From the IMG/VR virus record IMGVR_UViG_3300044646_000633, positions 1 to 59,347 of that record: a stretch of 59,347 nt of DNA. One strand, 5' to 3'. A model generated the notes under the pieces. That model was not told the DNA's origin, made no database searches, and saw nothing but the letters and a program-made list of their open reading frames with translations. Each line of letters opens with the position of its first letter. Position 1 is the first letter of the stretch. Positions 1-59,300 of this stretch are shown piece by piece. The DNA is from a virus (Duplodnaviria > Caudoviricetes). Made by a program: the position numbers and the translations under genes.

Positions 1-245
1 TCCACAAGATCGACCCGAATGGCGAACTGATGAAGCGCGCCCGTCAGGCGGGCGATGATCTAGTTCGATCCAACGTCCCAGCCGCCCCCTTCGTCACCAA
101 GACCGAAGGTTGGTTGAGCCTCGCCCTCAAGCGCATCATGGTCATGGCCGCAGAGGGCGGCTACGACAAGGTGGCGTTCGTCAACGGCGAGCAGTCTGCG
201 GATCGGTATGACCTGAGCAAGCAGGTCAGCACGCTTCTTCACAGA
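1..245. repeat. Terminal overlap, copy 1 (matches 59103-59347); indicates a circular assembly
   Basis: Identical to the window end except G118 vs A59220 (Ser/Asn codon); reading frame continues across the join. Confidence 0.95.
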
Positions 246-3200
246 AAGAACAATGACGGCACCTACTATGTAGTTGCAGAAACCGCAGGCGGCACCATCG
301 AAAAGCCATCTTTGACGCAGCAAAGCCTCGAAGACACCGTTGGCAAAGAAGTGGCCAAGAAGATCGTGGCCGGAGAGGGACCGGACAACGGAGGGGGATT
401 CCATGCGCTTCAAGGCCTCGACCTCAAGGTCGGCGGCGAAGGCATGAAAGCCTTCTACGACCAGATCGTCCCGGCCGCGCTGAAGAAGCTGCTGCCAAAG
501 GTGGGTGGCGGGCAAATGGGCGTCGTGAAGGTGGATGGCATTGTGCGCGCCAGCACCGGCAACATGGAGGCTGGAGACTTCTACGACCGCCAGGAGAACC
601 CCGATTTCAGGATGCTGGCGCAGCCCGGCTTCGACGTCACCCCCGCCATGCGCGAGAAGGCGTCCACCGGCCTGCCGATGTTCAGCCGCACGCTCCCGGC
701 CAGCGGCGCCCGCCAGACCCCCGCCCAGCGCGCCGAGGCCATCCTGGCCACGCCAGTGACCAAGGCCCGGCCACTGGATCGGGTGTTCCGGGCCGCGTCG
801 CGCGCCACCGGCCTGGAGTTCGTCGCACGCCAAGCCTATGACCGCGCCGGCCATCTGCTTGATCGGCTGACCCCCGAGACCGTCAAGGCCGGCATCGTGT
901 CCGACTACGGCGTGCCCGAGGCCGTGATCGACATGCGCGTCATGCTGCAGGGGCGCCAGCGCCAGCAGCTGCGCCGGGCCGGCGAACTGGTGGACAAGCT
1001 GTCCAACCTCACGCGCGCCGAGTCCCGCATCGCCTACGAGTGGATGAACATGGACGGCTCCGACCCCCGGGCCTACCTCTCCATGATGCAGGGCCTGCCC
1101 GAGGAGTCCGTGAAGGTGCTGCAAGAAGTGCAGCGCATGATCGACGATCTGTCCAAGGAGGCAGTGCGCCTGGGCCAGTTGGACCCGAGGTCCTATGAGC
1201 GCAACAAGTTCGCGTACCTGCGCCGGACCTATGACCGCTACCTCGAAGAGTTGACCCCGCAGCAGCAGCGCGCGCACCAGAAGGCCACCCGCATCCTGGG
1301 CGATCAGTACCGCAGGCGCGGCTTGACCGAGCCGGTGGACATGGCCAAGCTCAAGTCCGGTGATCCTGAGTGGTGGGGCCGCAAGGAGCGCGAGGGCAAA
1401 GGCGACGCCGGGCTGGTGAACCAGGAGTTCATCAAGCTGGAGCGCCTGAAGCCCACGGGCGCCGGCACGATCCCGCTGCCTGGGATGACGGGCAAGGCCG
1501 ACGGCAAGGTGCTTGAGGTCGTCTACTGGCCTGCGGAGCGCGCCGTGCCCGCGAAATACAGCGAGTGGCGGCGCAACGAGGTCTTCAAGGTAGATGATGT
1601 CAAGGGCGGCAAGGTCGTGCTGTGGCGCGACTTTACCAAGGATGAGCGCGAGGCCATGGGCGAGGTCGATGAGGCCCGCTTCGCCATCGCCCGCACCCTG
1701 CAGCGCATGGTCCACGACGTCGAGGTCGGGCGCTACCTGGAGAACCTGTCCCAGAAGTTCGCCAAGGCCGACGGCGACGAGATCGACGGCGTTCTGGTCG
1801 AGGCAAGCGAAAGCTGGCACCGGGCATTCAAGCCCAGCGAGTGGGTCAAGGTGCCGGACTCCAAGATCACGGGCACCAGCGTTCACCGCTACGGCAAGCT
1901 GGCCGGGAAGTACCTGCCGGGCCCGATCTGGAACGACGTGCGGTTCGCAGTCAACGGGCCGACCCGCCCCCTGGGCGAGGTCTACAGCAAGATTCTTGCG
2001 GCCTGGAAGGTGTCGAAGACGGCCCTGACGCCGGCCGTGCACATGAACAACGTCATGGCCAACCTCGTGATGGCCGACTGGCACGACGTCGGGGCGGCGC
2101 ATGTGGCCAAGGCCCTGCGGCTGATCCTGGCGGCGCATCAGCGCGACGGCAAGGGAGCCTTGGGCCGCGTGGGCAACGTGGCCGCGGGCGCCGGCATCGC
2201 CGACCGCGAGGCTGCCCTGGCGATCATGAACCGCTACCGCGACGCGGGCGGCGACATCGGCTCATGGGCGACCCAGGAGATCGCCCGCGAGCAGATGGCC
2301 CCGCTGCTGGACGCCGTGCTCGAAGAACTGGGCCGCGACGGCGACGCCTCGGTGCAGGGCCAGATCGGGGTGATGGCCGCCCTGCAGAACCTGCTGCACC
2401 TGAAGCTGCCCGAGGCCTGGACTGCATTCAAGGCCAGCAAGCCAGCGACCGTTGTAGGCCGCGAGGCTCAGTCCATGATCGACCTGTATCAGGCCGAGGA
2501 TGATGTCTTCCGGCTGGCGGCGTGGTTGGCTGCCAAGGAGCAGGGAATGGACGATCTGCGCGCCGGCCGGGAGGCTCGCCGCTCGTTCCTGGACTACGAC
2601 ATCAACGCGCCCTGGGTGGACGCGATGCGGCGCAGCGCGTGGCCGTTCATCGCCTTCACCTACCGCGCGGTGCCGATGCTTTTCGAGATCTCCGGCAAGC
2701 GCCCGCACAAGATTCTGAAGCTGGCGACGCTGCTGGGCGCCCTGAACATGCTGGGCGTGGCTATGTCGGGTGACGACGAGGACGACGAAGAGCGCCGTCG
2801 GCGCATGCTGCCCGAAGAGAAGGCCGGCCGGGTCTGGGGCGTGGTGCCCAAGCTCATCCGCATGCCCTGGAACGACGCCAACGGCTCCCCGGTGTACCTG
2901 GACATCCGGCGCTTCATCCCGGTGGGTGACGTGGTGGACACCGGTGCGACGCAGGCTGCGCTGCCAGTGCCCCCAGGCCTGATGCCGGGCGGGCCGCTGG
3001 TCATCCTGGGCGAGGTCCTGATGAACAAGAGCGCGTTCACGGGCAAGCCGATCACGCTGGGCACGGACACCCCGGCCGAGTCCTCGGCAAAGGTCTTCGA
3101 GCACCTTTACAAGGGGTTCGCGCCCAACCTGCCGGGCCTGCCGGGCACCTACGCGACCGACGCCCTGGTCAATGCCGGCACCGGCAAGACGGACGCCTTC

Positions 3201-3461
3201 GGCCGGCAGCAGTCGATGGCGCAGGCCATGGCGTCGTCGGTCGGCGTGAAGCTGGGCAGCTACCCAGAAGACGTGCTGCGACGCAACACGCTGGGGCGCG
3301 CAGGGTCGCAGCGCAAGGAGATCGAAACCGTCATGAACGGGCTGCAGCGGCAGCGCAACATGAACGGGATCAGCGAAGCGGAGTACGAACGGAAGATGGA
3401 AGTTCAGCGGGAGAAGCTGCGCAAGCTGAACCAGGAGACGCGCGAGAAGGTGGCGCAGTGA
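1..3461 (+). CDS. Giant polyvalent protein, C-terminal part (not an independent gene)
   Basis: In frame with the 47303 ORF via the terminal overlap; helical C-terminus with a hydrophobic stretch (ATLLGALNMLGVAM) as in polyvalent/ejection proteins. Confidence 0.85.
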   Translation, partial: HKIDPNGELMKRARQAGDDLVRSNVPAAPFVTKTEGWLSLALKRIMVMAAEGGYDKVAFVNGEQSADRYDLSKQVSTLLHRKNNDGTYYVVAETAGGTIEKPSLTQQSLEDTVGKEVAKKIVAGEGPDNGGGFHALQGLDLKVGGEGMKAFYDQIVPAALKKLLPKVGGGQMGVVKVDGIVRASTGNMEAGDFYDRQENPDFRMLAQPGFDVTPAMREKASTGLPMFSRTLPASGARQTPAQRAEAILATPVTKARPLDRVFRAASRATGLEFVARQAYDRAGHLLDRLTPETVKAGIVSDYGVPEAVIDMRVMLQGRQRQQLRRAGELVDKLSNLTRAESRIAYEWMNMDGSDPRAYLSMMQGLPEESVKVLQEVQRMIDDLSKEAVRLGQLDPRSYERNKFAYLRRTYDRYLEELTPQQQRAHQKATRILGDQYRRRGLTEPVDMAKLKSGDPEWWGRKEREGKGDAGLVNQEFIKLERLKPTGAGTIPLPGMTGKADGKVLEVVYWPAERAVPAKYSEWRRNEVFKVDDVKGGKVVLWRDFTKDEREAMGEVDEARFAIARTLQRMVHDVEVGRYLENLSQKFAKADGDEIDGVLVEASESWHRAFKPSEWVKVPDSKITGTSVHRYGKLAGKYLPGPIWNDVRFAVNGPTRPLGEVYSKILAAWKVSKTALTPAVHMNNVMANLVMADWHDVGAAHVAKALRLILAAHQRDGKGALGRVGNVAAGAGIADREAALAIMNRYRDAGGDIGSWATQEIAREQMAPLLDAVLEELGRDGDASVQGQIGVMAALQNLLHLKLPEAWTAFKASKPATVVGREAQSMIDLYQAEDDVFRLAAWLAAKEQGMDDLRAGREARRSFLDYDINAPWVDAMRRSAWPFIAFTYRAVPMLFEISGKRPHKILKLATLLGALNMLGVAMSGDDEDDEERRRRMLPEEKAGRVWGVVPKLIRMPWNDANGSPVYLDIRRFIPVGDVVDTGATQAALPVPPGLMPGGPLVILGEVLMNKSAFTGKPITLGTDTPAESSAKVFEHLYKGFAPNLPGLPGTYATDALVNAGTGKTDAFGRQQSMAQAMASSVGVKLGSYPEDVLRRNTLGRAGSQRKEIETVMNGLQRQRNMNGISEAEYERKMEVQREKLRKLNQETREKVAQ

Positions 3462-3470
3462 CAATGCGCC

Positions 3471-4046
3471 ATGCCCAAGATTGACACAACCAAGTTGCCG
3501 AAGTACGTGGTGGCGCGGCGCAAGGCGTCCGGCCGCGTCTACTACTACCTCACCATGAAGCGCGACGGGCGCCGATATGAGCACCCGCTTGGGTCTGATC
3601 TTCAGCGGGCCCTGGAAGACGCAAGCAAGATCAAAAGCCAGCTTGGGATGACAGGCTTTCGGCACAGCGAGGCTCTCAAAGACGAAGCCGCAAGCGAGCT
3701 ATACCGCAAGGTTCTGAAGGGCGCGAAGGCGCGCGGCCTCCCGGTGTCAATGACGCTTGATGACGTGCGCGGCTTGCTTCAAGAGTCTGGCGGGCGATGC
3801 TCGCTGACCGGCTTTCGGTTCAACGAGAACTGGGACACCGCTCGCAGAATCCGCCCGTGGGCACCAAGCATTGACCGCAAAGACAGCAGCCAGGGCTACA
3901 CCCGAGAGAACTGCAGGGTGGTTGCTGCATGCGTCAACATCGCCTTCAACAACTTCGGCGACGCCCTGATGATGCAGATGGCTAGGGGTCTCGTGAACCG
4001 AGGCCGGCAGGCTTTGCGGACCGGGCCGCAAAACACTGCCGTCTAG
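3471..4046 (+). CDS. Integrase arm-binding-like N-terminal domain fused to an HNH/His-Me-like nuclease domain
   Basis: N-terminus LPKYVVARRKASGRVYYYL...RRYEHPLGSD aligns with the integrase N-terminus; C-terminus CSLTG...PSIDRKDSSQGYTRENCRVV..CVN. Confidence 0.7.
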   Translation: MPKIDTTKLPKYVVARRKASGRVYYYLTMKRDGRRYEHPLGSDLQRALEDASKIKSQLGMTGFRHSEALKDEAASELYRKVLKGAKARGLPVSMTLDDVRGLLQESGGRCSLTGFRFNENWDTARRIRPWAPSIDRKDSSQGYTRENCRVVAACVNIAFNNFGDALMMQMARGLVNRGRQALRTGPQNTAV

Positions 4047-4081
4047 GTTAGCGGGCACTACCGCGCCGCGCTGCGTTTTAG

Positions 4082-4129
4082 TGGCTCCCCGACCTGGACT
4101 CGAACCAGGGACCTGCGGATTAACAGTCC
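4082..4129 (-). mobile_element. attP core: 3' half of tRNA-Asn(GTT)
   Basis: Minus strand reads GGACTGTTAATCCGCAGGTCCCTGGTTCGAGTCCAGGTCGGGGAGCCA (anticodon loop, T arm, CCA); no 5' half; lies just downstream of the integrase. Confidence 0.9.
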
Positions 4130-4147
4130 TCCGGGCACTGCCTTGCG

Positions 4148-4244
4148 AATCAGGTACTTACGCCGAATCCCGGTCCGCAACCATCCGTAGACGGATACCG
4201 CAAGCCCTTGATTCACAAGGCAGCGGGCTACGGTTGCGGACCGG
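4148..4244. promoter_or_regulatory. attP arm: IHF-like sites and inverted arm-type repeats
   Basis: 4201-4213 minus = AATCAAGGGCTTG (fits WATCAANNNNTTR); 4148-4160 AATCAGGTACTTA (1 mismatch); CCGGTCCGCAACC 4170-4182 and its perfect inverse 4232-4244. Confidence 0.6.
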
Positions 4245-5316
4245 CTTTCCGGGCGGTGGGCGTGACCCTGTCGCCCAGGCGGACGTAGTGCTCGGTCATG
4301 CGGATGTTCTTGTGCCCAAGCTGGCGCTGGGCCGCCTGCAGCCCGTCGGCGTCGGCCTTGTCGGTGCCGGCCTTCGCGCGCAGGTCGCGGAACTGAAATG
4401 CCTCGATGGCAGTGGCCATGTCTTTGTCGCCCGCCTTCCTGGCCGCCTTGGCGGCCTTCTCGCGGGCGTCATCGAAGGCGTTGTCCAGGCCGTAGGCGGT
4501 CAGCCTGGAGCCCTGCCGGTTGACCACCAGGGCCAGGTCGATCACGCGGTTCTGGCGCTTGCGCTCGGCAATCTCGGCCAGCTTCAGGCCGAGGGCGTTG
4601 GGGCCGGTGGAGCCTTCGAGCTCGATGCGCAGCTTCTTGGCCGTCTTGCCTTGGCCGACACGCAACACGCCATCCCGGACGTGGGTGGCTGACATCCTGA
4701 GCACGTCGGCCGGACGCTGGCCGGTCAGGTAGGCAAGGTCGATCGCATCCTTCAGCGGCTGGCTGGCCGCGGCATAGACCGCCTGCAGCACCTCGTCCTC
4801 GACGTAGATGTCTCGGCCGGTCTCCTTGAAGCCCTTGATGCCTGCGCAGGGGTTGGGCAGGGCGGTGATGCCCCAGTCCCGGGCCATGTTCCAGATGTGC
4901 GACAGCAGGGCCTTCTCGCGGTTGGCGCGGATCTTGGCCGACTCCCCGCGCCACGTCAGGTACTGGCGGACGTGCTGCGGCTCGATGGCCTCGAAGGTGA
5001 TGGGCGGGTCGTTGAAAAACTTCAGCAGGTTGGCCAACTCCTTGATGTTGTCGGCCTGGGTGCGCGGCGCCTTGGTGGGCACCACCCGCTGCAGGTACAG
5101 GTCGGCCACGTCCTTGAACGTGGTGACGGGCGCCACGTTCTCGGTCTTGGTCAACTCAACCCAGCGGGTGACGGCGATCACGTAGTCCGGGCCCAGCGGA
5201 ATCTCGCGCCTGGGCTTGCCGCCCGTGTCCAGGTAGTAGTACGTCCGGCCGCTGGGCTTGGTGCGGGCCCGTAGGCCGCTGGGCAGGTTCAGGTGCTTGG
5301 TCGGGCGTCGGCCCAT
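4228..5316 (-). CDS. int: Tyrosine recombinase / phage integrase
   Basis: TGQR, FRDLR, LGH and HY catalytic motifs; adjacent attP. Confidence 0.95.
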   Translation of the reverse strand: MGRRPTKHLNLPSGLRARTKPSGRTYYYLDTGGKPRREIPLGPDYVIAVTRWVELTKTENVAPVTTFKDVADLYLQRVVPTKAPRTQADNIKELANLLKFFNDPPITFEAIEPQHVRQYLTWRGESAKIRANREKALLSHIWNMARDWGITALPNPCAGIKGFKETGRDIYVEDEVLQAVYAAASQPLKDAIDLAYLTGQRPADVLRMSATHVRDGVLRVGQGKTAKKLRIELEGSTGPNALGLKLAEIAERKRQNRVIDLALVVNRQGSRLTAYGLDNAFDDAREKAAKAARKAGDKDMATAIEAFQFRDLRAKAGTDKADADGLQAAQRQLGHKNIRMTEHYVRLGDRVTPTARKAGPQP

Positions 5317-5395
5317 TGGGTTCTCCGTGGCGGCTGGTGCAGTGCGCCACAGGTTCCTCGCGCGCGCGAGGCCCGTCGATGGGACGATGATGGGA

Positions 5396-6124
5396 TCAGG
5401 CTTTGCGGATCAGGCGGATGAACACCGCGCCCATGTCCAGGTGCCACCAGCGGGTTCGGAAGTCTGCCCAGCCCGGGTGGTCGTGATGCGTCTTGTGCAG
5501 CCACTCGCCGCAGGCCGGGAAGATGCACTCAAGCCAGGGCAGGTCGCGAGGCTTGCCGCCGCGGTGGCTGGTGATCTGGTGAATCGCGCCGATCAGGTGG
5601 GTGCTGCCCAGCGGCATCAAGTAGGCGAAGAGAAAGAACGTGGGCGAGACGGCCAGCATCAAGGCGCACGCAGCAATCCAAAGCGCCAGGCCGTAGCGGT
5701 GAACGATGGCCAGGGTCGGATCGCCGGCCAGGGCGCGCAGGCGCCACCGCACCATCGGCACGTCGCGATATCGCTTGTCGTAGAGGTAGTGCCAGTCGGC
5801 AAAGTGCGGGTCGCGCCCGGTGTCCGAGTGCGCGTGATGAGTGTTGTGCGCCGCTGCCCAACCCTGCGGGCTGCCGTTGAGCAAGAGGACGCTGTAGTAC
5901 GCCATGAAGCGGTGCCAGAAGGCCGAGGTCTTGAAGGCCCCATGCGAGAAGTACCGATGCAACCCGACCGACAGCATCAGCGAGCCCAGGACGTGGAAGG
6001 CTGCCCAGGCGGCAAGCCACCATGCCGACACTGCATCCGTGGCCACAAGCCACAGACCGAGGCCGATGCCGGCCAGCCCGAGGTAGTAGCCCATTGGGAT
6101 CATCCACAGGGGTTGTCTAAGCAC
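5396..6124 (-). CDS. Membrane fatty acid desaturase (delta-9/acyl-CoA type)
   Basis: Three His boxes HRYFSH, HNTHH, HKTHH plus SDT..DPH; hydrophobic segments. Confidence 0.9.
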   Translation of the reverse strand: MLRQPLWMIPMGYYLGLAGIGLGLWLVATDAVSAWWLAAWAAFHVLGSLMLSVGLHRYFSHGAFKTSAFWHRFMAYYSVLLLNGSPQGWAAAHNTHHAHSDTGRDPHFADWHYLYDKRYRDVPMVRWRLRALAGDPTLAIVHRYGLALWIAACALMLAVSPTFFLFAYLMPLGSTHLIGAIHQITSHRGGKPRDLPWLECIFPACGEWLHKTHHDHPGWADFRTRWWHLDMGAVFIRLIRKA

Positions 6125-6644
6125 GGTCGCCTCCGATCACAAGAGCATAGGTCCCAGCCGCGGCCACGAACTCGTCGCCGCCCACGCGGAAAGTGTCGCC
6201 TGGCTCGTGCCGCCCCAAGCTGCCAGAGCACACCAGGATGCGGCTTCCTTCCCGGCCAAGGAACACCCCGCCGTTCGGGTATCGCAGCGGCGTCAGGTCG
6301 GGCAACGCGCCACGGTTGGCGTGCCAGTTGAAGCACCAGAACTCAAGCTCATCGGCAGCGGTGACTGTTGTGATGCCCCCGGGGTGGTCTGGCCTCTCGC
6401 CAGTGAACAAGCCGGGAACCCTGTCGTCGAACTGTCCGCCGAGGTTGTTGGACACCACGCCTCTACCTCGAACGTACAAGGCCCTGTTGGGCGCCGCGCT
6501 GCGCGCGACGGATCGCGCCGACACAACCACCATGGACGCGCCGGCCGGCAGGATGTGGCGGTGCACCCGCCAGCCAAAGACCTCGCGCGGCGTCACGATT
6601 GCAGCCGACTCCCGGCCGCGCCATTCTCGCCTGGGCACGCTCAT
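6117..6644 (-). CDS. Hypothetical protein, beta-rich, possibly cupin-like
   Basis: Translationally coupled to neighbours; fold is a guess. Confidence 0.6.
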   Translation of the reverse strand: MSVPRREWRGRESAAIVTPREVFGWRVHRHILPAGASMVVVSARSVARSAAPNRALYVRGRGVVSNNLGGQFDDRVPGLFTGERPDHPGGITTVTAADELEFWCFNWHANRGALPDLTPLRYPNGGVFLGREGSRILVCSGSLGRHEPGDTFRVGGDEFVAAAGTYALVIGGDRA

Positions 6645-6647
6645 GGG

Positions 6648-7037
6648 TTACCCCGCTGGGTAGATCACGACGGAGCCAGGCACGACCGAGTTGTCCTTCG
6701 GGTAGGCATCTTTGACGGCCTTGATGTGGCTGTAGAACGGCTCGACCTTTGGCAGCACCCCGTCGTCCATTGCGTGCCAAAGCATGTCGAGCTGCTCGTT
6801 CACGCCTGGGTAGGAGCGCAGCCTTGCCGTGCGGTAGTCCATGTCAACAGGTGGCGGCGGCCTGCCTCCGACCACAACCTGCTTGGTGTCCACGTTTACC
6901 GTGTCCGCATCGGGGTCCGCCTGCGCCTCGATGACGAACTCGTCGGGGCCGTGGACCTGAATCTCAAAGGTCTCGTCCTGGCAGATGCCGGCGCGCAGGA
7001 TCTCGCCTGCGGCGTTGTAGATGACAAAGTGCTTCAT
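6648..7037 (-). CDS. Tail fibre assembly/chaperone-like protein
   Basis: Real start MKHFVIYN overlaps the fibre stop (ATGA); RSYPGVNEQLDMLWH...IKAVKDAYPK motif typical of tail-associated proteins. Confidence 0.65.
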   Translation of the reverse strand: MKHFVIYNAAGEILRAGICQDETFEIQVHGPDEFVIEAQADPDADTVNVDTKQVVVGGRPPPPVDMDYRTARLRSYPGVNEQLDMLWHAMDDGVLPKVEPFYSHIKAVKDAYPKDNSVVPGSVVIYPAG

Positions 7038-9235: not shown

Positions 9236-9246
9236 GGATGTCGCCG

Positions 9247-47302: not shown

Positions 47303-50300
47303 ATGCCACTCGTCTTTCCCGATCAGCCCGCCTCGAAGGCAGCCGCGCAAACCGCCTCTGACGCTGCCCAGGTGGCGGCGCAGGGGGTGATGCCTCAGAA
47401 GACCCAGCAGCCGACAGGCCGGCTCGTGTTCCCGCAGGAGCGGGAGCGCACCTGGGGGCAGGCCGCGGCCGACACTGGCGTGCAACTGGCCGAGGGGGTC
47501 AACACCATCCTTGGCGCGATCCCTTCGCTTGTGGCCCCGGATTCGAGCGCGGCCGGGTTCTTCCGTGACAACGCGGAGTTCTGGCGCAAGAAGCAGTCCG
47601 CACCGCTGCAGGTCCGATCGGACCTCGCCAACGTCGCCATCGACAAGGCCGGCGAGGATGGCGTCATCGCCCAGGTGCTCGAAGCCGCATCGCAGTATTC
47701 GGACGACCCCGGCCTTGCGGCCCGCTTCGTGGTCACGAACCTGCCAAGCATGATCCCGAGCATCGGCGCGGCCAAGCTCGCCCAGGTGGCGACGGCTGCG
47801 CGCACGGCTGCGGCGGTGAAGGCCGGCACCATGTCCCAGGCTGCAGCGACTGCGGCCGGCGCGGCTGCGGCCACCACGGCGGGCGGCGTGACCAATGCGG
47901 CACTAAACGCGGGCGGCGCGCGGGGCGAGTCCTTCGAGGACATCAAGCGCACGCTGCTGCAGCGCGGGTACTCCGAGGAGGAGGCCACCCAGCGCGCCCT
48001 GGACGATTCGCGCCTGCCGGCTGCGGTCGGCGGCGTCACGGGCTTCATCAGTGGGCGCACGGGCCTGGAGTCTGCGCTGTTCGGCGTGGGCGGCACCGGC
48101 AACGTGGTGCGGCGCGGGGTCGGGAAGACCCTGGCGGAACTGGGCGGCGAGCAACTGGAAGAGGTGGCGCCGAAGGTGGCGACGAACCTCCAAGCCGGCC
48201 AGTACGACAACCGGCCGCTGACGCAGGATGTCGGCCGCACCATCGTCGAGACGGCCATCGGGTCGGGTCCGCAGTCGGTCGTGGCCGGTGTGTCCGAGGC
48301 CCTGCGCGGCGACCCTGCGGCGCCCACCGGCACCCCGGCGCTTGCGGGGCAGCCTCCGGCTCCGGCACCGGCACCGGTGCAGGCCCCGCCCGCACCGCCC
48401 GTAGCCCCGGCCGGCACCATCGTCCCGCCCGCCGGTGGCCCTGGCGCCCCTGGTGCTGCAGTGCCCCCGCTGGTGGACCCGGCCAACATCCCGCCCGAGC
48501 TCGACGCCCAGAACCGCGACCGCACCCGCCCGGCCAGCGTGCTGCAGATGCAGAGCATTGCGCAGAGCCCCGACTACCTGCGCCTGGGCCCGTCCAGGTC
48601 GCCCGACACCGGGGCGCCGATGGTGTTCGCCCAGGGCGACGACACCAGCGTCATCCCCGACGTGGCGCGCGGACGCCAGGACATCGCGGTCATGTCCGAC
48701 GGCCAGCGCGTTCCCTTCACCTATGCCGTGGTCGATGCGAGCCTGCTGCAGCCGTCGAACTTCGCCGACGGCACGCCCAACCCGCTGTTCGGTGACGAGA
48801 CGCCCGGTCTCATCAAGGCGCTGAACAACGGTCGCAGCGCCGGCCTGCGTGCTGCCTGGGCGCAGGGCACGGCATCGGGCTACGGCACCGACCTGGAAGC
48901 CGACGCCGACCAGCACGGCGTGTCACCCGAGGCCATCCGCTCCACGCGCAACCCGGTCTTGGTGCGCCTGTATTCGCAGGCCGACAACAAGCCCAACATG
49001 GCCGCGCGCAGCCAGGGGCAGGGCCTGGGCATGTCGCCTGGGGAACTTGCCCGCCAGGATGCACCGCTGATCGACGGTGGCCTTCTGGCCGTGTGGCAAG
49101 GCGGGGATGTGGCGGACACGCGCAACCTGGACTTCGTGCGTGGGTTCGTCGGCCGGCTGCAGGGCACCGGCCAGGACCTCGCCGGGATGATGACCCAGGC
49201 CGGCACGCTATCGCCGGACGGACGCAAGCGCATCCAGGCCGCACTCGCCCAGGCAGCCTACGGTGACGCCGACCTGATCGGCGAAATGTTCGACTCCACG
49301 GACACCGACATCAAGGCGATCGGCGAAGCGCTCAAGCTCGCGGCGCCCGAGTGGGCCGACATGCGCGACTCCGCGCGCAGCGGGGCGATTGACTCGGCTG
49401 CGGACATCACGCCAGCCCTGCTGGATGCGGTGGCCATGGTGCGCCGCGCGCGCCAGCAGCGGCAGAGCCTGTCCGATCTCGCGCGTCAGACCGACATCAC
49501 GACGGGCCAGGCGCCCGATCCGATGGTCCTGGGCGCGCTGCGCCTGCTGTACGGCGGCGAGTACCTGACTCGACCGATGGGTCGCGACCGCATGGCCGAC
49601 CTGCTGCGTGAGTACACGCGGATGGCCAAGGGCATCACGGCAGACGCGGGCCTGTTCGGGGACGCCCCGACGCCGTCGGACGTGCTTACCGCATTGACGA
49701 AGGAGGACACCGATGGACAGCAGCAACAGCCTGGCGCAGGCCAGCCAGCCCAGCAACCCAGCGCAAGCAGCCAGCAACCCACTGGCAGCGGCGATCCTCG
49801 GGGCGATGCTGGTGCGGGAGGGTCAACGGCAGTTCGACCCGGCGACAGCCAAAGCGGGGCACAACCTGCTGCGGGTGGCGCAGGACCACTGGCCAACGAC
49901 AATCCCGCAGGGCAAGCGCCTGCCCCAGGTGTAGCGCCTGCAGCGCCCGCACCGGGCACGCGCAGCAATGTGGCGGCGCCCAAACCGGCTCCGGCCCCAG
50001 CGCCCGCTCCCGCTTCTCCTCCCCCGCCCGCGCAACCGGAGGTGAATGCCGCGCCCGCTGCGCCGGCGAGGGGAGGGGACCCTGCTGTCAGCCCCAACAC
50101 CGTCTTCACCGAGGACGCTGCGGCGGCTGCCCGTGCGCGCCTGAAGGCCAAGCTGGGCCGGCTGAACGCTGGCATCGACCCCGAGACGATGCTGGACGGC
50201 ATCACGCTGGCGGGCTACCACATCGAGCGCGGCGCGCGGACCTTTGCGGCCTACGCTCGCGCGATGGTGGACGACCTGGGCGACGCGGTGAAGCCCTACC

Positions 50301-53300
50301 TCGTTTCCTGGTACTTGGCCGTGCGCAACGATCCGCGCGCTGCGGACTTCAAGGCCGACATGGACAAGGCCGGCGCGGTCGAGGATGCGGACCTGGACGC
50401 GCTGCTGGCGGACAAGGGCAAGGCCGAAGCGCCCGGCTCGCTCCCAGCAGGATGGACCGAGGCCCGCCCTGGCGGCATGGCCACCAACCCGGACCCCAAG
50501 AAGGGCGGCATCGTTGACGTGGCGCCGGCCACGGGCGGGTGGTTCGCCATCCCGAATGACAGGGCCCTGACCAAGACCAAGCTCGAAGGCTTCAAGTCTC
50601 GCGCCGATGCGTTTTCGGCCTTGGAGCGCGCGGTCGCGCAGGCGTCATCCCAGCAGGATGCGCCATCCCTCAACACCCCCTCCGGCCGCGCGGTCCTGGC
50701 CCAGACCATCGCCGACCGGTTCATCGGTGGCGACGGCTTCAAGACCATCATCGAGGCCCGAAAGTTCATCGCCGACGCCACGGGCGAGAAGATCGAGGCC
50801 GGCACCCAGGCCGCGAAGCTGGCCGACGAGGCTATCGAGATGGCCGTGGTCCTGGCCGGGCGCGAGATCGTCCAGGCTGCACGCGCGCAGGGCCGCGACG
50901 ACGGCGTGATCTACGACCGACTGGTGAACCTCTACGGCCTGCAGCCGACGCTGGGTGTGCGCACGTCCACCAGCGTGCGCGAGCAGGCCTACAGCACTCC
51001 CGTGCCCTTGGCCTTCCTGGCGTCTCGCCTGGCCCGGGTCGCGCCCGACAGCACTGTAGGCGAGCCTACGGCCGGCAACACCATGCTGTTGATCGAGGTC
51101 GATCCCGATCGGGCAACGGTCAACGAGCTCAACGCCGACCGGGCAGCCAACGCTCGCGCGCTGGGCTTCACCGTGACCACCCACGACGCGGCACGGCACC
51201 AGCTTGCGCCCGAGAAAAGCCTGGACCGGGTGATTGCCAACCCCCCATTCGGCGCCGTCAAGGACGACAACCGGGAAACGGTGGTGTTTCCGGTGGCGGC
51301 CAACTACGGCACGCGCGAGATTGACCATGCCATTGCCTTTAAGGCCCTGGACGCCATGAAGGACGACGGGTCGGCGGTTCTGATCCTGGGTGGCGTGGAC
51401 GCATCGAACGACGAGGCGATCCGCGAGGGCTACCGGGGCAAGAGCAAGCGGGAGTTCTACTTCCGCCTCTACGGCCTCTACAACGTGGTCGATCACTTCA
51501 CGGTCGATGGCGGGCTGTATTCCAAGCAGGGCGCGGGCTACCCTGTGGACGTGGTCGTCATCCGAGGCCGCGGCAAGGCGGCTCGCGCGATGCCGGCCGC
51601 TGAACTGCCCAAGAGGTACGACACCTGGGAAGCACTCAAGAAGGAGAAGCTGGATGGATCAACCGAAGCAGGCGCCGATGGCATGGTGCCCACCGGGGGT
51701 AGCACCGGAACTGGCCGGGGTGATGGTGCCCAAGGGCAGCAGCCTGGAACCGGGGGACTGGTGGATGGCCCTGGCGGACAGGGTGCAGGCGATGGTAGAC
51801 GAGGAGCCGGACCCGGACGAGGCGGCAACGTGGGCGGCGAAGGCGCTGGGCCGCCCGGGGCTGCGGGACAGTCAGGACGCCGGGGAGGTACTGGTACAGC
51901 GCAACCTGGAGCTTCGCAACGCCCTGACGCTGGACGTGACGGGGCAGCCCAAGCACCCGTTCCCGGCCAAAGTAATCGCCGAGGCGGCGGCAACGCGCAA
52001 GGCGATGGAGGAAACCGACCTGGAGACGTGGGTGGAACTGGCGGCGGCCAGGATCAACGGGTAGGGTCCGGGCTCAGCGACCGGCGCGGCCAGGAGCAAG
52101 AGACCGAGACCCAGGTGGCCTACGCGCCCCAGTCGGGCGCCGCGTCAGTCGGAACCCTGGTGCCGCGCGCCATGCGCGACTCCATCGCGGCATCGCTCAA
52201 GCGGGTGGCCGACTCGGTGGGCAACATCGACGAGTTCGTCGCGCAGAAGCTGGGGTTTGACCCCGAGACGCTGCGCGCAAACTTCTCGGCCGAGCAAGTT
52301 GACGCGCTGGCCTTGGCCATCGTGAGCGCGGAGGCCGGCAAGGGCTTCATCATCGGCGACCAGACGGGCATCGGTAAGGGCCGCGTCGTGGCGGCAATGC
52401 TTCGCTACGCGATGCGCAACGACAAGGTGCCGGTCTTCGTCACCGAGAAGCCCAACCTGTACGCGGACATGATCCGCGACCTGGACGACATCGGCATGGG
52501 CGACGAGTTGCGCCTGCAGTCGAGCAAACCGCTGATTCTCGTCACGAACAGCAGCGAGCCCATCCCCTACGTCCTTCAGCGCAAGATCGGCGAGGACGTC
52601 GTGGAGACGGAGCACTCGCTGCGCGCGCCCGGGGCTGGCGCCGACCTGGAGAAGTTCTTTGACAAGATAGCTGGCGACGGGGACATCGGGCCTTACAAGG
52701 TCGTGTTCACCACGTACAGCCAGCTTCAGACCGTCAAGGGCAAGATGACGGCGCGCATGCGCATGGTGCAGTCCCTGGCCGATGGCGGCTACATGGTCTT
52801 CGACGAGAGCCACAACGCGGGCGGGACGCAGATCACGCAGCCACGCACCAAGACGGACCGCGACGCAGCCAAGGCCGGCGAGACCACGACAGGCCGCTCC
52901 GGCTTCGTTCGACAGCTTGTGCGCGCATCGTCGGGAAGCTTCTTTTCGTCGGCCACCTATGCCAAGCGGCCGGACGTGATGGACCTGTACTCCAGCACGA
53001 ACATGATGCTGGCGGTGGACAAGCCCGCCGACCTCGCGCCCGCGATCATACTGGGCGGCGTGCCCATGCAGCAGATTGTGGCAACGATGCTGGCCGAGGA
53101 TGGACAGTACATCCGGCGCGAGCGCACCTTCGCGGGCGTGACCTACGAGACCCGTCCGATGACGGTGGACCGGCGGACGGCCGAGAACATGGCGCAGTCC
53201 ATGCGCATGATCCTGGCTTTCTCGCGGGCCAAGGATGCGGCCGTCAAGTCGATGAAAAGGGAGTTCGACCGCGAGGGCGCCGTGCTGGGTGTCATGGGCG

Positions 53301-56300
53301 GCGAGAAGACCTCTGTGCAGGGCGCCAACTTCGGCGCGATCATGCACAACCTCATCGACCAGATGCTGTTGTCGCTGAAGGCTCAGCAGTCGGTGGACTT
53401 CGCCATCGAGCGGCTGAAGGCCGGCGAAAAGGTCGTGCTGACGGTGGCCAACACGATGGGTTCCTTCCTGTCGGACTATGCCGAGGACTTCGGCATTCGC
53501 CCGGGCGAGCCGGTAACGCTCAGCTTTGCGGACCTGTACCAGCGTTACCTTGAGAAGCAGCGCATGGTGCGGATCAAGCGCCCGGGCGGACCCAAGGAGG
53601 GCACGCCATACCGCCTGACGGACAAGGACCTGGGCCCCGGCCTTGTGGCCCAGTTCAATGCGGTGGGCGAGTTCATCCGCGGCGCTGGGTTCGGTGCGGC
53701 ACCTATCTCGCCCATTGACTACATGCACCAGCGGCTGCGCGATGCCGGCTACAAGACCGACGAGATCACGGGTCGCACGATGACGGTTAGCTACGGGTCC
53801 AAGGTGCCCACGCTCGCCTCGCGCCGGGCCAACATCAAGCAGCGGCTGGCGGCGATCCGCGGGTTCAACGGCGGCACCGTTGACGCGATCATCCTCAACC
53901 AGTCGGGCGCCACGGGCTTGTCTCTGCACGCCTCGGCCAAGGTCAAAGACCAGCGCAAGCGGCGCATGATCATCGTGCAGGCCGAGAAGAACATCGACAC
54001 TCACATGCAGATGCTGGGTCGAGTGCACCGCACGGGTCAGGTGATTACGCCGGACTACACACAAGCCATGGCCGACATCCCGGCCGAGGCCCGGCCGGCG
54101 TCGGTGCTGCTGAAGAAGATGGCCAGCCTCAACGCCAACACCACGGCCAGCCGCAAGAGCGCGGTGACGGCCGAGGGCGTCGTGGACTTCATGAACGACT
54201 ACGGCGGCCAGGTGGCCGCGGAGTTCCTTCTGGAGAACCCCGAGGTTCACATGGACCTGGGCGGCAACAAGGTGATTGAAATACCGGACGATGCCACGCA
54301 GGCCGACGAAGATCTCATCCGCAAGCTGACGGGCTACATCCCAATCCTGCCCATTGACCAGCAGGAGGCCGTCTACCGCGACCTGGTGGACCGCTACAAC
54401 GAGTTGCTGGCGCGCGAAAACGCCATGGGCTCCAACAAGCTCGAAGCCGCGGCGCTCGACCTGGGAGCCAAGACCGAGAAGCGCGAGCAAGTCACCGCCA
54501 AGCGCGAGAGCCCGGTGCCGTCGCGGTTCGCCGAGCCGGCTTTCATGGAACAGGTAGACGTGGCGCGCACGGTCAAGCCGTTGACCAGGGCCGAGGTCGA
54601 TGAAGCCGTCGCCCAGGCTCTGGCCGGCAAGACGCCGGATGCGGTGGCCGAGGCGATGGTCCAGACCATCCAGCAGCAGGCCCGCGATTACGCCGACCGC
54701 GTGCAGGCCCTGCGGGTGAAGCAGGGCGCAGACACGGATGCCGACGAGCGCGATCGCATGCTGAGCGAGATTCAGACGATCCAGGCACAGAAAGACATCC
54801 TGCTGGACCACATTCGCGGCCTGCAGATTGGACAGGCCGTTACGGTGCTGGACCAGAACCAGGCCGCGACCTACGGCGTCATCACGTCCGTGGTAGGCAC
54901 TGGCAAGACCAAGAACCCGGTGGCCGGCTCAGGCTGGAGGTTCAAGATTGCCCTGGCCAACGGCGAGGCCCGCTCGATCACTCTGAGCGCGTCGCAGATC
55001 AACAAGCAGTTCACGATCCGCCCGGAGCGCGGCCAGGTGCTGACGCTGGACCCCCGGACGAACGACGTGGCGTCGATGTCGATCAGCGACCTGTTCGACG
55101 CCTACGGGACTGGCAACATCCGGCGCGAGAAGCGATGGATGGTCACGGGCAACCTGCTGGCGGGCTTTGCCTCGTTCTCCGGCCAGATCATCACCTACAC
55201 CAAGGACGACGGCTCGACGGCGCAGGGCGTGCTGATGCGTCGGGGCTTCGACTACGAAGAGCGCAAGGGTGACGCCAAGGCGACGCTCCAATCTGCGGAC
55301 ATGATTCGCAGGTTCTTCACCGAGGCCGGACGCAACGCCATGATCGGCACTCCCGATGGCGTGCTGCGCGTGAAGTGGATGGGCGGGTCATACCCCGCTG
55401 AGTTCGAGGTCTCGTCCTCCAAGCGCGCGGGCGGCACGTTCTTTCTGGATCGCGGCCTGACGGACGCTCTGGGGCGCGACTTCACGAAGTCCGGCCAGGT
55501 CATGCGCGTCGCGGTGACCGAAGACGACATGATGAGCGCCCTGGTCTACCTGATGACCGAGCGCGATGACGTCAGCCTCGAAGCGAAGACGAACAAGGAC
55601 ATCGCGCGGCGCCTGCTGGGCCTGCCCGATACGACCGATGCGCAGCAGAACCGCGTGGCCCGAGAAGAGGGCGCTGTCTATCGTGTACGCGAGCAAGGCG
55701 ACGAAGCGCGCGACATCCCGGCCGACCTGTTCCCCGACACCCTGGAGTCCCTGGAGCCCACTGCGGCAGATCCGCGCGTGCATCGCAAGCGGCGCAGCCC
55801 GGGCGGTGTGCCGGTGGCGGCTGCGGACGAGAAGCCCACCGCAGTCCTGGCCGTGCGTGAAGACCCGGCCATGCCCGGGGTCTACCACCACTCCAGCCAG
55901 CTTGTGCAGGTCGGCATCCGCGATCTGCCCGTGTCCAAGGTCACGAACTGGATGGAGGCATCCTCGGCCCTGGCGTCGCTGGGCAAGTTCGCAGTGGAGC
56001 ACTTCGATGCCTTGGTGACGGATGCGTCTGGCAGGCCGCTGGCGGTCATCGGCGCCTTCAAGGGAGCGGAGGCGCAGGCTTCGGTCTATCCCGGCGTCGT
56101 CTTGGCCGAGGCGCTTCGCATCGAGGGCGCGGCCCGCGTATGGGGTGTTCACAACCATCCCAGCGGGAATCAGGAGTTGTCGGTTGCCGACCGGCGCCTG
56201 AGTGAGTCCATGCGCATCACATTCGAGCCATCGTCCGTGCAGTGGATGGGCATTGCAGCGATTGGTGAGGGTCGCTTCCAGGCCTACGACGGCAAGGCCG

Positions 56301-59300
56301 TCACCGAGGGCGTGCTGGTGGAAGGCAAGACCGTGGCTCGCGTGCCTATCGTCGAGCGCACGATCCAGCGCATGAACGTGGGCATGCCAATCCTGTCCTC
56401 GACCGCAGAAGCCAAACGGGTCATGGGCGCGTGGTCCAACAACAAGCCCGGCCTGCTGTTCGTGTCGAACTCCAACCAAGTCACCGCCTGGGTGCCAGTC
56501 AAGCCCGACGACATGAAGGTGCTGCGCAAGGATGGGCGCTTTGAACGGCTGATGAACTCGGCAACGCAGGCTGGTGCGCGGGGCGTGTTGATCTCCAACC
56601 CGAATGGCGTGATGAACCTCGCCACACTCGACAACATCGCGTCCGCGCTACGCATGGCGGACGTTCGGGTGCTGGACGTGATTGACCCGTCGCAGCCAAG
56701 GACGCTCTCGGAGCAAGGCCTGGGAGCCAGGAACGATAGACCGGTGTTCTCCCGCACGGACATGCCCGCAAAGGGCATGACCCGGGACAACGCCCAGCGC
56801 ATCGCATCCGGCGCCGTGTCGGCCTGGAAGAACAAGCCACGGCTCGTGGTGGCGCGCAACATCCAGGACCCCGCGGTGCCGCAGGCGCTGCGCGACGAGG
56901 ACAAGCGCCAGCGCGCGGGCGGCGCGACGGGTGAGGTCAGGGGCACCTTCTACCAGGGCGCGATGTACCTTTTCAGCGACCACCTGGGCTCCGACCTGGA
57001 CGTGATCGAGACCGTCTTCCACGAGGGCCTGGGCCATTACGGTCTGCGCGGCCTGTTCGGCAACGCGCTCGATGCGGTGCTGGACATGATCAACCTTGCG
57101 CGGCCCGATCTGATGCGCCCGAAGGCAGCGGAGTACGGCGCGGATCTGCGCAACTCGGCGCACCGTCGCTACATTGCCGAGGAAGTGCTGGCCGGCATGG
57201 CGCAGAGCGAGCCCACGCTGGGCTTCGTGCGCAGGGCGATTGCCGCGGTGCGGACATGGCTGCGCACCAACGTGCCCGGCCTGGAGAAGCTGCGCCTGAC
57301 CGACGCCGAGATCATTCGCAACTTCATCTTGCCGGCCCGTCAGTTCGTGATGCGGGGCCAAGCCCAGGCGGGTGCCGGCCGCGACATGGCGGCGGCGTTC
57401 CAGCGGGCGCAGGCGACCGACTCGCAGGCTTTCAAGCGGTGGTTTGGGGCGTCGAAGGTGGTGGACGATCAGGGCCGCCCGATGGTCATGTACCACGGCA
57501 CCAGTCGGCCGGGCTTCACTGTGTTCGACAGGCTGAAAACGCTGGAGTGGCGCAGCCCCTCGATGGACACGGTGGGCTCTTGGTTCAGCAACAACCCAGC
57601 AGACGCCGATGGCGCTGGCCTGTACGCGGCCGGTGGCAATTCGGCTCTGTATCCCGTCTACCTGAGCATCCAGAACCCGAAGGTCTACCGCACCTTCAAC
57701 GACTTCTTGCGACACATGCACAAAGCGGCCGGTCGCCCCATGCCTGAAAACGCTCCAGGCCGAGGATCGACCGAGGAGCTGCGCGCGGAACTGAAAGCCG
57801 AGGGCTATGACGGCATCCAGTTCTGGCAGACCGCCAATGAATCGCTGATGGAAGACATCCGCGAAATGCAGGACGCAGTGAAGCGCGCCAAGGACGAGGA
57901 GTTTTCGGTTCCGCGAGCCCAGAGGCAGCCGTACACACAGAAGCGCGAGCGCCTGGAGCAGACTCTCAAGTCAATGCGCAAGGAGCTTGACGAGTTTGGC
58001 AGCAGCACGGAGTTCGATGGCCAGCGCGTGTTTGTCGCTTTCGAGCCCACCCAGATCAAGTCAGCCATCGGCAACAGTGGCGCCTTCGACCCGGCCAACG
58101 CGGACATCCGCTTCAGCCGCGTAAGCACGCCTGCCCGCAGTCCCCTCGGCTTCTTCAGCGCCCTGGCGCGCAGCTTGGGCGACATCAGCATGGGTGCTGC
58201 GCCGACCCAGGGCTGGAAGGAGGCTATCAAGGGCCTGGTGAACAAGGGCGCCGTCAAGGCCGATGAGGTCGAGTGGTCAGGCGTGAACGACTGGCTTGAC
58301 CTGCAGCAGGGCAAGGTAATGAAGGCCGACGTCCTGGCGTACCTGAATGCCAATGGCGTGCAGGTCGCGGAGACGGTGCTGGGCGGATCGCTGGACGACG
58401 CTCTGCGCGCGATGCGCCAAGAGCGCGACGACATCGAGGCGCGGCTGAACGCACTGGGCTTTGAAATGCGCGACGAATACGGCGAGGCTGTCCTTCACAA
58501 GCGCGTGAACGGCATGGACTTCGTGTGGGAAGACGGGCAGTTTGTGGACGAGGACGGAGAGCCGCTGGCCGACACCGACGCTGAGGCGCGCGACTTGGCC
58601 ATCCAGTACGGCATGAGGACCGACGAACTGGAGCGGGCGCGCGAAAACCCCGATGGGGAGGGCCGCACCAAGTACGGCCAATACACCCTCCCAGGCGGCA
58701 CCAACTACCGCGAGGTGCTGCTGACGTTGCCACCATCAAGCAAGCTGACGCCCATGAACCGCTGGGTGGTTGTTGATGAACGGGGCAACGTCGCTGCGTC
58801 ATTCAACAACCGTCAAAGCGCGGAGGACGCACGCGAGATTGCTGCGCCCGGTTATCGAGTAGAGGAAGTGTTCGACAAGCAGGACGTTTCCTACCGAAGC
58901 AACCACTGGGACCAACCCAACGTCATCGCCCATGTCCGCATGAACGACCGCACCGATGCCGATGGCAAGCGCGTGCTGTTCGTCGAGGAACTGCAGAGCG
59001 ACTGGGGGCAGGAGGGGAAGAAGAAGGGCGGATTCCAGCCGACTCCGGCGCGCCGCGCAGAGATCGACGCCATCATGGCGGAGGTTGACGCAGCCGGCGG
59101 CATCCACAAGATCGACCCGAATGGCGAACTGATGAAGCGCGCCCGTCAGGCGGGCGATGATCTAGTTCGATCCAACGTCCCAGCCGCCCCCTTCGTCACC
59201 AAGACCGAAGGTTGGTTGAACCTCGCCCTCAAGCGCATCATGGTCATGGCCGCAGAGGGCGGCTACGACAAGGTGGCGTTCGTCAACGGCGAGCAGTCTG

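Follow-up and report, generated by a model that had tools for sequence, protein, structure and literature searches.

A predicted PacI-type nuclease at the edge of a phage attachment site carries a DNA-binding domain related to that of the neighbouring integrase

In the present work, we describe a gene that is located at the edge of the attachment site of a virus of the Caudoviricetes (Duplodnaviria), the IMG/VR virus record IMGVR_UViG_3300044646_000633, which has been analysed over its whole length and is referred to as the window (59,347 bases, with a completeness estimate of 98%). The gene, located at positions 3471 to 4046, encodes a protein of 191 residues that consists of two parts: an N-terminal domain that resembles the N-terminus of the phage's own tyrosine integrase, and a C-terminal domain with the fold and the conserved motif of a PacI-type nuclease. 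Comparisons across the family give strong support to a nuclease that would be aimed at the attachment site (att) by an integrase-type arm-binding domain; the family is widespread, optional and located at the edges of attachment sites, where its members most likely cut the same region in related elements without the gene. A homing or marker-exclusion endonuclease is the most economical reading; exclusion without homing and the steering of recombination are less probable readings; a partial correlation with the integrase tree and the frequent position of the gene downstream of the integrase gene (int), in the same orientation, fit them too.

A preliminary description of the gene, made from the sequence alone, had seen in it an integrase N-terminal domain fused to an HNH-like nuclease and facing the phage attachment site, attP, and had proposed an att-targeted nuclease or a recombination modulator. 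We know of no earlier nuclease that borrows the arm-binding domain of an integrase, and our search of literature listings has found no description of one.

The two domains of the protein

The features that concern the protein and its partner integrase are the following:

3471..4046, + strand: gene of the two-domain protein ("FAM"), 191 residues, ATG start, from the list of open reading frames (ORFs)
3483..3644, + strand: arm-type DNA-binding domain, residues ~5-58, from the integrase identity, the model and structure matches
3678..4010, + strand: PacI-type His-Me (HNH-like) nuclease domain, residues ~70-180, from PHROG, structure searches and invariant columns
4228..5316, - strand: tyrosine integrase, 362 residues, matching PF00589 at 1.2e-15 and PHROG 1 (integrase) at 3.7e-40

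Residues 9-43 of the protein align with residues 11-44 of the phage's own integrase with 19/35 identities (54%; E 5e-6 in a single BLASTP comparison), and the same stretch is recovered by a six-frame search of the whole record (E 5.5e-4). We have modelled the protein with AlphaFold2 from an alignment of 48 homologues, with a mean predicted local distance difference test (pLDDT) score of 90.3; the N-terminal domain of the model is composed of three strands (residues 13-17, 23-31 and 34-41) and a helix (44-57), i.e. the three-stranded sheet packed on a helix that characterises the arm-domain fold. In a VIA-align search of 48,161 chains, it aligns with the arm domain of the HPI integrase (3jtz; Z 6.5, root-mean-square deviation (rmsd) 2.6, 59 residues aligned), with lambda Int 1-64 on P'2 DNA (2wcc; Z 5.7) and with lambda Int (1z1b; Z 5.6, rmsd 2.1, 49 aligned), while AP2 chains align at Z 3.6-4.4; Foldseek returns 3rmp, 3jtz, 3ju0, 2wcc and 1kjk, every one with E >0.001. 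The 191-residue protein has no match in Pfam (at E<=1) or NCBIfam and stays below every Pfam arm-domain threshold, and the N-terminus of the phage's own integrase is likewise without a Pfam arm-domain match. Arm-type domains bind repeated arm-type sites around the att core. Judging from the model, the N-terminal domain is an arm-binding domain of the lambda Int type, with DNA binding as its predicted function.

The C-terminal part carries the motif C..TG...SIDR.D...GY...N...N and matches PHROG 3322 ("endonuclease", 1.4e-20), 3118 ("HNH endonuclease", 1.7e-13) and 1035 ("endonuclease VII", 6.3e-10). Across the 48 full-length homologues, the invariant residues are G41, C110, S133, D135, R136, Y143, N147 and N156. 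PacI is the best match in both structure searches: Foldseek finds 3ldy (E 0.012, probability 1.00), and VIA-align finds 3m7k over residues 66-174 (Z 8.6, rmsd 3.5, 107 aligned). A phmmer search of the PDB sequences, where PacI is the sole match, pairs D135, R136, Y143, N147 and N156 with identical PacI residues between 92 and 113, with an E value (1.2) that is not significant alone. The beta-beta-alpha-metal fold is present in the model as strands 132-136 and 148-152, followed by a helix at 153-184; SIDR stands where the histidine-bearing strand would be, and Y143 aligns with the tyrosine of the GY pair of PacI. According to the parts of PMC5714182 that deal with PacI, this enzyme is without a catalytic histidine and uses a tyrosine of the omega loop; on that account, and on the alignment, Y143 is probably the equivalent of the catalytic tyrosine of PacI. 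A symmetric homodimer is predicted through residues 112-177 with an ipSAE of 0.69 (best of three controls, 0.00), where the different runs have at least 68% of their contacts in common and the pLDDT of the partner is not below 74; the ipSAE mark is attained by one of 23 proteins solved as single chains, compared with 20 of 30 solved as pairs.

The integrase-like N-terminus and the His-Me-type motif that the preliminary description had reported are thus both borne out, by sequence matches and by the folds of the model, the second of them being refined to the PacI type, with a tyrosine in place of the histidine.

As a side observation, PHROG 4592, "decoy of host sigma70", matches residues 69-157 (3.6e-7), and several deposited phages annotate such nuclease genes as Srd or anti-sigma; this annotation may have been carried over from the nuclease fold.

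The N-terminal domain follows the partner integrase

Our comparison of the N-terminal regions with the neighbouring integrases is focused on 29 non-redundant loci (51 before de-replication), where an integrase of at least 250 residues is located within 1 kb of a family member with an N-region of at least 35 residues; each N-region has been scored against the first 150 residues of each of the 29 integrases, and all 29 of the scored neighbour proteins match PF00589. The cognate integrase ranks first in 16 loci (approximately one being expected by chance), second in three and third in one, and the summed cognate score is reached in none of 10,000 permutations. The similarities among the N-domains of the nucleases are correlated with those among the N-domains of the integrases (Mantel r 0.55, 0/5000 permutations). 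In nine of the 29 loci, the N-terminus of the cognate integrase outscores all the other N-regions of the family, from which it follows that the domain has been exchanged or re-copied repeatedly. The nuclease domains stay similar to each other, with a mean normalised score of 0.35, compared with 0.08 for the integrase catalytic domains, which are far apart.

The type of the N-terminal module varies across the family. The N-domain of one homologue (L074) passes the cut-off of the Pfam family Arm-DNA-bind_1 (PF09003; 22.2 bits, cut-off 22), Arm-DNA-bind_4 is matched weakly in L013, and DUF6538 is matched in L023 (9.3e-5). Modules of the excisionase (Xis) type occur as well: the variant in L114 (4902-5558) has an HTH_17 match at the C-terminus of the nuclease protein (2.7e-5), and the N-terminus of the variant in L044 (4488-5000) matches small ORFs located upstream of int in L042, L009/L010 and L074 (phmmer 4.7e-8 to 1.9e-4), the last of which is PF07825 Exc at 1.4e-12; the order in these loci is xis, int, the family gene and att. 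A further variant, of 269 residues, has the nuclease first, followed by an Int-N/AP2-like domain, and is found as the same protein in six loci (L014/L015/L016, L102-L104).

The attachment site and its arm repeats

The ends of the record fall inside one giant gene, whose first part occupies the right end (47303..59347) and whose remainder is found at the left (3..3461), and the attachment region is therefore seen as the uninterrupted phage form. Its features are the following:

4082..4156, - strand: tRNA-Asn-like element (ARAGORN); the attP core is probably its 3' part (4082-~4130)
4014..4031, both orientations: arm-type repeat on the side of the nuclease gene, an exact 11-mer (4014-4024, +) that is partly covered by an inverted copy (4021-4031, -) in which one base is mismatched
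4170..4180, - strand: arm-type repeat on the integrase side, an exact 11-mer, kept in the relative L144 amid diverged flanking bases
4234..4244, + strand: arm-type repeat on the integrase side, an exact 11-mer in the last codons of int, kept in L144

The nuclease gene (+) and the integrase gene (-) converge on the tRNA-Asn-like element from opposite sides, with the stop of the nuclease gene (4046) located 36 bp from the 3' end of the element. Both this arrangement and the arm-like repeat in the 3' end of the gene had been noted in the preliminary description, and both stand. The repeat, TTGCGGACCGG, occurs exactly three times in the 59 kb, at 4014 (+), 4170 (-) and 4234 (+), with 0.08 copies expected and none of 100 shuffles reaching three, statistics that are post hoc, as the repeat has been chosen from the sequence itself. 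The first copy forms, together with its inverted partner, a dyad at 4013-4032, which sits in the last codons of the nuclease gene.

The tRNA-Asn of the preliminary description has held for its 3' part, 4082 to ~4130, which is shared with bona fide tRNA-Asn genes, and not for the element as a whole, which is a poor tRNA: ARAGORN calls a full tRNA-Asn, the Rfam score is 20.3 bits against a gathering threshold of 29, and the Rfam scan of the region has given no other credible match. Within the element, only 4082-4135 is conserved in L144, together with the repeats outside, while the bases between diverge; many high-depth contigs from four freshwater or aquatic metagenome runs share only 4082-4129, followed by ordinary tRNA sequence, and the 5' half of the element is unlike the real tRNA-Asn genes of the metagenomes. 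From the limits of this conservation and sharing, we take the last ~50 nt (3' end) of tRNA-Asn as the core, which is flanked on either side by arm-type repeats; the element probably combines an att core with tRNA-like sequence beyond it and does not work as a tRNA, and the copies of TTGCGGACCGG are candidate arm-type sites for both the integrase and the N-domain of the nuclease. In deposited phages, near-identical DNA is limited to matches of the tRNA part.

Repeats near the family gene have also been found in other loci. In L011, TTCTACAAAA (with at most one mismatch) occurs seven times in 5951-6782, around the gene at 5974-6477, where 0.42 copies are expected; none of 200 shuffles reaches the locus total of eight. 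An unguided search for the 10-mer with the most copies has placed such copies within ~45 bp of the stop in L003, L006, L065 and L042/L009, and three loci with the window-type N-domain have the core TTGCGGA in common; the other loci have given two-copy motifs only, of doubtful meaning.

Presence and absence among close relatives

Among close relatives, some carry the gene and others do not, a pattern that is suggestive of a selfish gene of the homing or exclusion type. The relative L144 (60 kb, 100% complete) is without it, with an integrase that is 92% identical and flanks of 85-86% nucleotide identity on both sides: after the stop of the giant gene, the body of the nuclease gene is replaced by ~73 bp with two tandem copies of the arm repeat. 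The last ~60 nt of the window gene are homologous to this intergenic arm, and the outer arm repeat is degenerate in the window in comparison with L144. A second lineage is divided between L153 and L154, where the gene is present, and L155 and L156, whose integrases are 80% and 78% identical, respectively (78-81% over the lineage), where it is absent, the difference being a clean indel directly after int; the spacer of the L011 dyad differs from that of the gene-less L155 and L156. The third lineage has the gene in L149 and not in L150 and L152, whose integrases are 70-71% identical, and the homology ends with int. The indels are thus clean in two of the three lineages (the window and L003 versus L144, and L153/L154 versus L155/L156). 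No match to the nuclease domain has been found anywhere in the five gene-less records, four of which are 95-100% complete and one 59%. Two marks of homing genes are present, i.e. sporadic occurrence among close relatives and a nuclease joined to a separable DNA-binding module.

Family size and genomic setting

A HMMER search of 1.84 billion representative sequences has returned 6155 homologues at E<=1e-3 and 1203 at E<=1e-10, many of them 175-200 residues long and aligned from their first residues. Among 50,697 deposited phage records, 36 match, over the nuclease part only (earliest query residue 33), and the fused form, N-domain and nuclease, occurs in none of the 36; in lytic phages, the relatives that consist of the nuclease alone are encoded by free-standing genes with the annotation HNH or endonuclease. 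The protein matches no PADLOC defence family, and the look-alike clusters of the ESM Atlas are all labelled "hypothetical protein" and are mostly viral.

We have examined the surroundings of the gene with one pipeline, on a set of loci that come from viruses (37), genomes (14) and metagenomes (80). Clustering at 85% identity groups the 132 loci that contain a family ORF into 97 clusters, and in 47 of these at least 1.5 kb is available on both sides. A tyrosine integrase is located within 1 kb in 21 of these 47 well-flanked clusters: in 15, the gene follows int, in four, the two genes converge, as in the window, and in two, the gene precedes int. When only the window-type N-domain is considered, an integrase is adjacent in 11 of 13 well-flanked clusters, the two exceptions being L040, where int is located at the other end of the prophage, and L101, where a 111-residue fragment of int and a tRNA-Arg are present. 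The survey of homologues that the preliminary description had proposed has therefore placed the members with an integrase-like N-domain beside integrases and att sites, with the N-domain following the cognate integrase in 16 of 29 loci. In eight non-redundant loci, the stop is located 27-51 bp from the 3' end of a tRNA on the opposite strand (Asn, Leu three times, Pro twice, Phe and Gln); the script, applied to all of the 83 clusters whose downstream sequence is at least 200 bp long, counts seven such tRNAs. The position of the family is conserved across loci of Alpha-, Beta- and Gammaproteobacteria and Terriglobia.

An integrated form is seen in Rhodanobacter (L040), where a perfect 59-bp repeat, the 3' part of tRNA-Leu(CAA), occurs at C25:43199-43257 and C25:83402-83460 and bounds a prophage of 40.2 kb; the nuclease gene (43308-43841, -) is located just inside one end, and an integrase-sized frame with a matching N-domain (from 82255, +) inside the other, which is exactly the layout that a window-type attP would give after integration. 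In 400 sampled genomes of the class of this host, no further family member has been found; the other matches in the sample are to the N-domain only, inside integrase-sized or smaller frames (G146 and G313, unpublished), and have not been used.

Relatives of window positions 2600-5400 that carry the gene, ~90-100% identical by piece, are present in lake, aquatic, plankton and freshwater metagenomes from four studies, and their assemblies break at the tRNA-like core; no RNA run was found among the carriers. Longer relatives of 240-370 residues (P0020, P0025, P0052, P0077 and others) have two matched stretches each, which suggests tandem nuclease domains or other fusions.

Neighbouring genes in the window

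3..3461, + strand: 3' end of the giant polyvalent-protein gene, from the ORF list, with Pfam domains in its upstream part

The stop of the giant gene and the start of the nuclease gene are separated by 10 nt, and co-transcription of the two is probable. Within 3200-5500, the promoter scan has found no promoter-like site, and the terminator scan has found two weak terminator-like sites, a count that is not above that of shuffles. The giant gene has more than 5,100 codons, with ddrB-ParB, AAA_34/ResIII helicase, Helicase_C_4, RadC-like JAB and ART-PolyVal domains (Pfam), and encodes a "polyvalent protein" of the type associated with phage-host conflict. Beside int, the ORF at 5396-6124 (-) has a weak fatty-acid-desaturase match (PF00487, 1.9e-5, 25 bits, cut-off 29.7) and may be a moron gene. 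The ORF at 7034-9877 (-), of 947 residues, contains long runs of short repeats rich in Ala, Gly and Ile (e.g. ITA.QIAAGA) and looks like a tail fibre from its sequence. A terminase-associated role of the HNH type has been dropped for the nuclease, as its gene is grouped with int and att, away from the packaging genes.

Comparison with known systems

With the arm domains of integrases (lambda Int 1-64, PF09003; the HPI/P4-like 3jtz and 3rmp), the protein shares the sheet and helix, at Z 5.6-6.5, with the difference that, in the window protein, the recombinase part is missing and a nuclease takes its place. Recombination directionality factors (RDFs) are small DNA-bending proteins that are needed for excision, are usually encoded upstream of int and have no catalytic domain. 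Excisionases and other RDFs (lambda Xis, PF07825; HTH_17) act on the att arms, as is proposed here, and two variants of the family carry Xis-type modules; in contrast, the window protein has 191 residues, a nuclease domain and an Int-type module, the family gene is located downstream of or opposite to int, and the gene appears to be dispensable for related integrases.

The best structural match of residues 66-174, PacI (3ldy/3m7k), belongs to group 20 of the His-Me finger nucleases in the passages concerned of PMC5714182, and shares with the window protein the motif D-R-x-D-x(3)-G-Y-x(3)-N...N and a tyrosine where HNH enzymes have a histidine; a symmetric homodimer is predicted for the window protein, possibly through the model's memory of the solved PacI dimer. 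The identity is 16-18%; the window protein is without paired zinc cysteines and has an arm-type N-domain where PacI has a helix-turn-helix-like N-terminal part, and it is encoded in an integration module, whereas PacI is a stand-alone restriction enzyme. The HNH homing endonucleases of the I-HmuI group (group 2 in the same passages of PMC5714182) resemble the family in their exchangeable DNA-binding module, of the AP2/integrase fold class, and in being free-standing and variably present genes, and the family variant in L015 has an AP2-like domain after the nuclease. They differ in that the window nuclease is of the PacI type, without the histidine, and its module has been copied from a neighbouring integrase or Xis, and in their niche: conserved genes of lytic phages for the I-HmuI group, the edge of the att arm in temperate elements for the family of the window. 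The PacI-like HNH genes of lactococcal Skunavirus are likewise phage-borne, variably present and read as homing endonucleases in the passages of PMC12724721 that deal with them; these genes are located in the morphogenesis module of lytic phages, and those same passages describe no integrase-type domain.

Proposed mechanism and alternatives

We propose, and judge about evenly poised between right and wrong, that the gene encodes a selfish homing or exclusion endonuclease, in which a copied integrase domain would provide the targeting to the att arms. The steps that we infer, i.e. binding to the arm sites, cleavage, action as a dimer, homing and self-immunity, would combine as follows. An arm-type DNA-binding module copied from the lineage of the partner integrase, joined to a PacI-type His-Me nuclease, would form a site-directed endonuclease, which would act as a dimer with Tyr143 in place of the usual histidine. 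The N-domain and the integrase would share one set of recognition sites, the arm-type repeats (here TTGCGGACCGG), and the nuclease would cut beside them in related phages or prophages without the gene; repair from the gene-carrying copy would then spread the gene and remove the rival allele, and the phage's own genome would be spared by the insertion, which alters the sequence next to the arm site. The likely targets are arm sites that are specific to the element family, and not the tRNA-Asn attB; unrelated elements that use tRNA-Asn would consequently not be recognised. The att-targeted nuclease of the preliminary description is in this respect supported in part, by both domains and by the att-side position of the family, with the exception that the tRNA-Asn-using competitors that had been named as an example of its targets would escape it where they are unrelated. 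That the family as a whole represents an undescribed class of att-arm nucleases, where a PacI-type module repeatedly takes the DNA-reading domain of a neighbouring integrase or Xis, thereby reads the private arm-site code of the element, and with this code invades or destroys the attachment regions of rival temperate phages and islands, we advance as a tentative extension, rather less probable than not.

Several observations weigh against the proposal. In 13 of the 29 loci, an integrase other than the cognate one scores best, and seven of these 13 have similarity at background level only (L009, L012, L014, L042, L044, L046 and L117); the nuclease and integrase similarities are also correlated (Mantel r 0.39, 0/5000 permutations), which fits a long stable partnership as well. 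By the script criterion, an integrase is missing from the 1-kb surroundings of 26 of the 47 well-flanked clusters, a number that includes L040 and, as a miscount, L045 (where the order is int, gene and tRNA-Phe, and the distance rule has failed because the ORF calls overlap), and mostly members with other N-termini. Concerning the structure, all Foldseek matches are above E 0.001, and the VIA-align Z of 8.6 barely exceeds the usual best Z (7-8) of unmatched models; the dimer prediction may be the model's memory of the solved PacI dimer. PacI has two zinc-bound cysteine motifs around its active site; its zinc-binding cysteines are missing in the family, where C110 alone is invariant and there are no CxxC pairs. 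The indels cannot distinguish insertion from deletion, and no contig that joins across the gene has been found in four DNA metagenome runs. Lastly, the gene-carrying genome retains exact arm-type sites, so that the altered flank is the only available account of self-immunity.

A domesticated exclusion nuclease, which would cut the att arms of related elements, either incoming or neighbouring, with a common arm code, in superinfection exclusion or competition for the site, without copying itself, has the same targeting evidence as homing; the conservation of its position across Alpha-, Beta- and Gammaproteobacteria and Terriglobia loci and the partial correlation between nuclease and integrase (r 0.39) speak for it. 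We nevertheless regard it as rather unlikely: no PADLOC defence family is matched, the clean presence and absence in close relatives is the pattern of a mobile selfish gene, the resident element has the same arm sites, and the window gene follows a late or virion-type operon and not a lysogeny gene. The gene could alternatively encode an accessory factor of recombination, which would occupy the arm sites with Int or instead of it, nick or bend the arm, and steer integration versus excision or regulate Int; the Int-like or Xis-like N-domains, the arm repeat that overlaps the 3' end of the gene, and the 15 of 47 well-flanked clusters with the gene directly downstream of int on the same strand are consistent with such a role, which is nonetheless quite improbable in our judgement, as integrases that are 70-92% identical occur in phage genomes without the gene, Xis-type genes are already located upstream of int in L074, L042 and L009/L010, an architectural role needs no invariant nuclease motif, and the layout of the window type puts the gene and int at opposite ends of the prophage. 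The directionality factor of the preliminary description finds no support, for two of these reasons, the gene-less relatives and the separate Xis-type genes.

Two further explanations deny the protein its nuclease activity or its targeting domain. The replacement of the catalytic histidine (SIDR), the reduction of the zinc-binding cysteine pairs and the one PHROG match annotated as "decoy of host sigma70" (3.6e-7) could mean that a dead or repurposed nuclease fold serves as a DNA-binding protein, e.g. as an arm-site repressor or a decoy; the invariance of D135, R136, Y143, N147 and N156, and their residue-for-residue alignment with PacI 92-113, make this very unlikely, as does PacI itself, which is an active enzyme with a tyrosine in the passages concerned of PMC5714182. 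That an ordinary phage HNH gene has an integrase-like N-terminus by accident might be argued from the shared stretch of only 35 residues and the lack of Pfam or NCBIfam matches, and is hardly credible next to the arm-domain fold of the high-confidence model, the cognate matching in 16 of 29 loci over several unrelated types of N-domain, and the Arm-DNA-bind_1 match of the homologue in L074.

Implications

If the proposal is true, a name, and a function open to testing, would become available for thousands of proteins that are encoded beside integrases and labelled as "hypothetical", and the presence of an extra gene between int and att in some integration modules would be explained. The many natural pairs of arm domains and arm repeats would lead towards a recognition code, useful for the prediction of att sites and for the engineering of integrases. 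The att arms could be targets of selfish or competitive cutting, and would then be, beyond a scaffold for recombination, a battleground between mobile elements.

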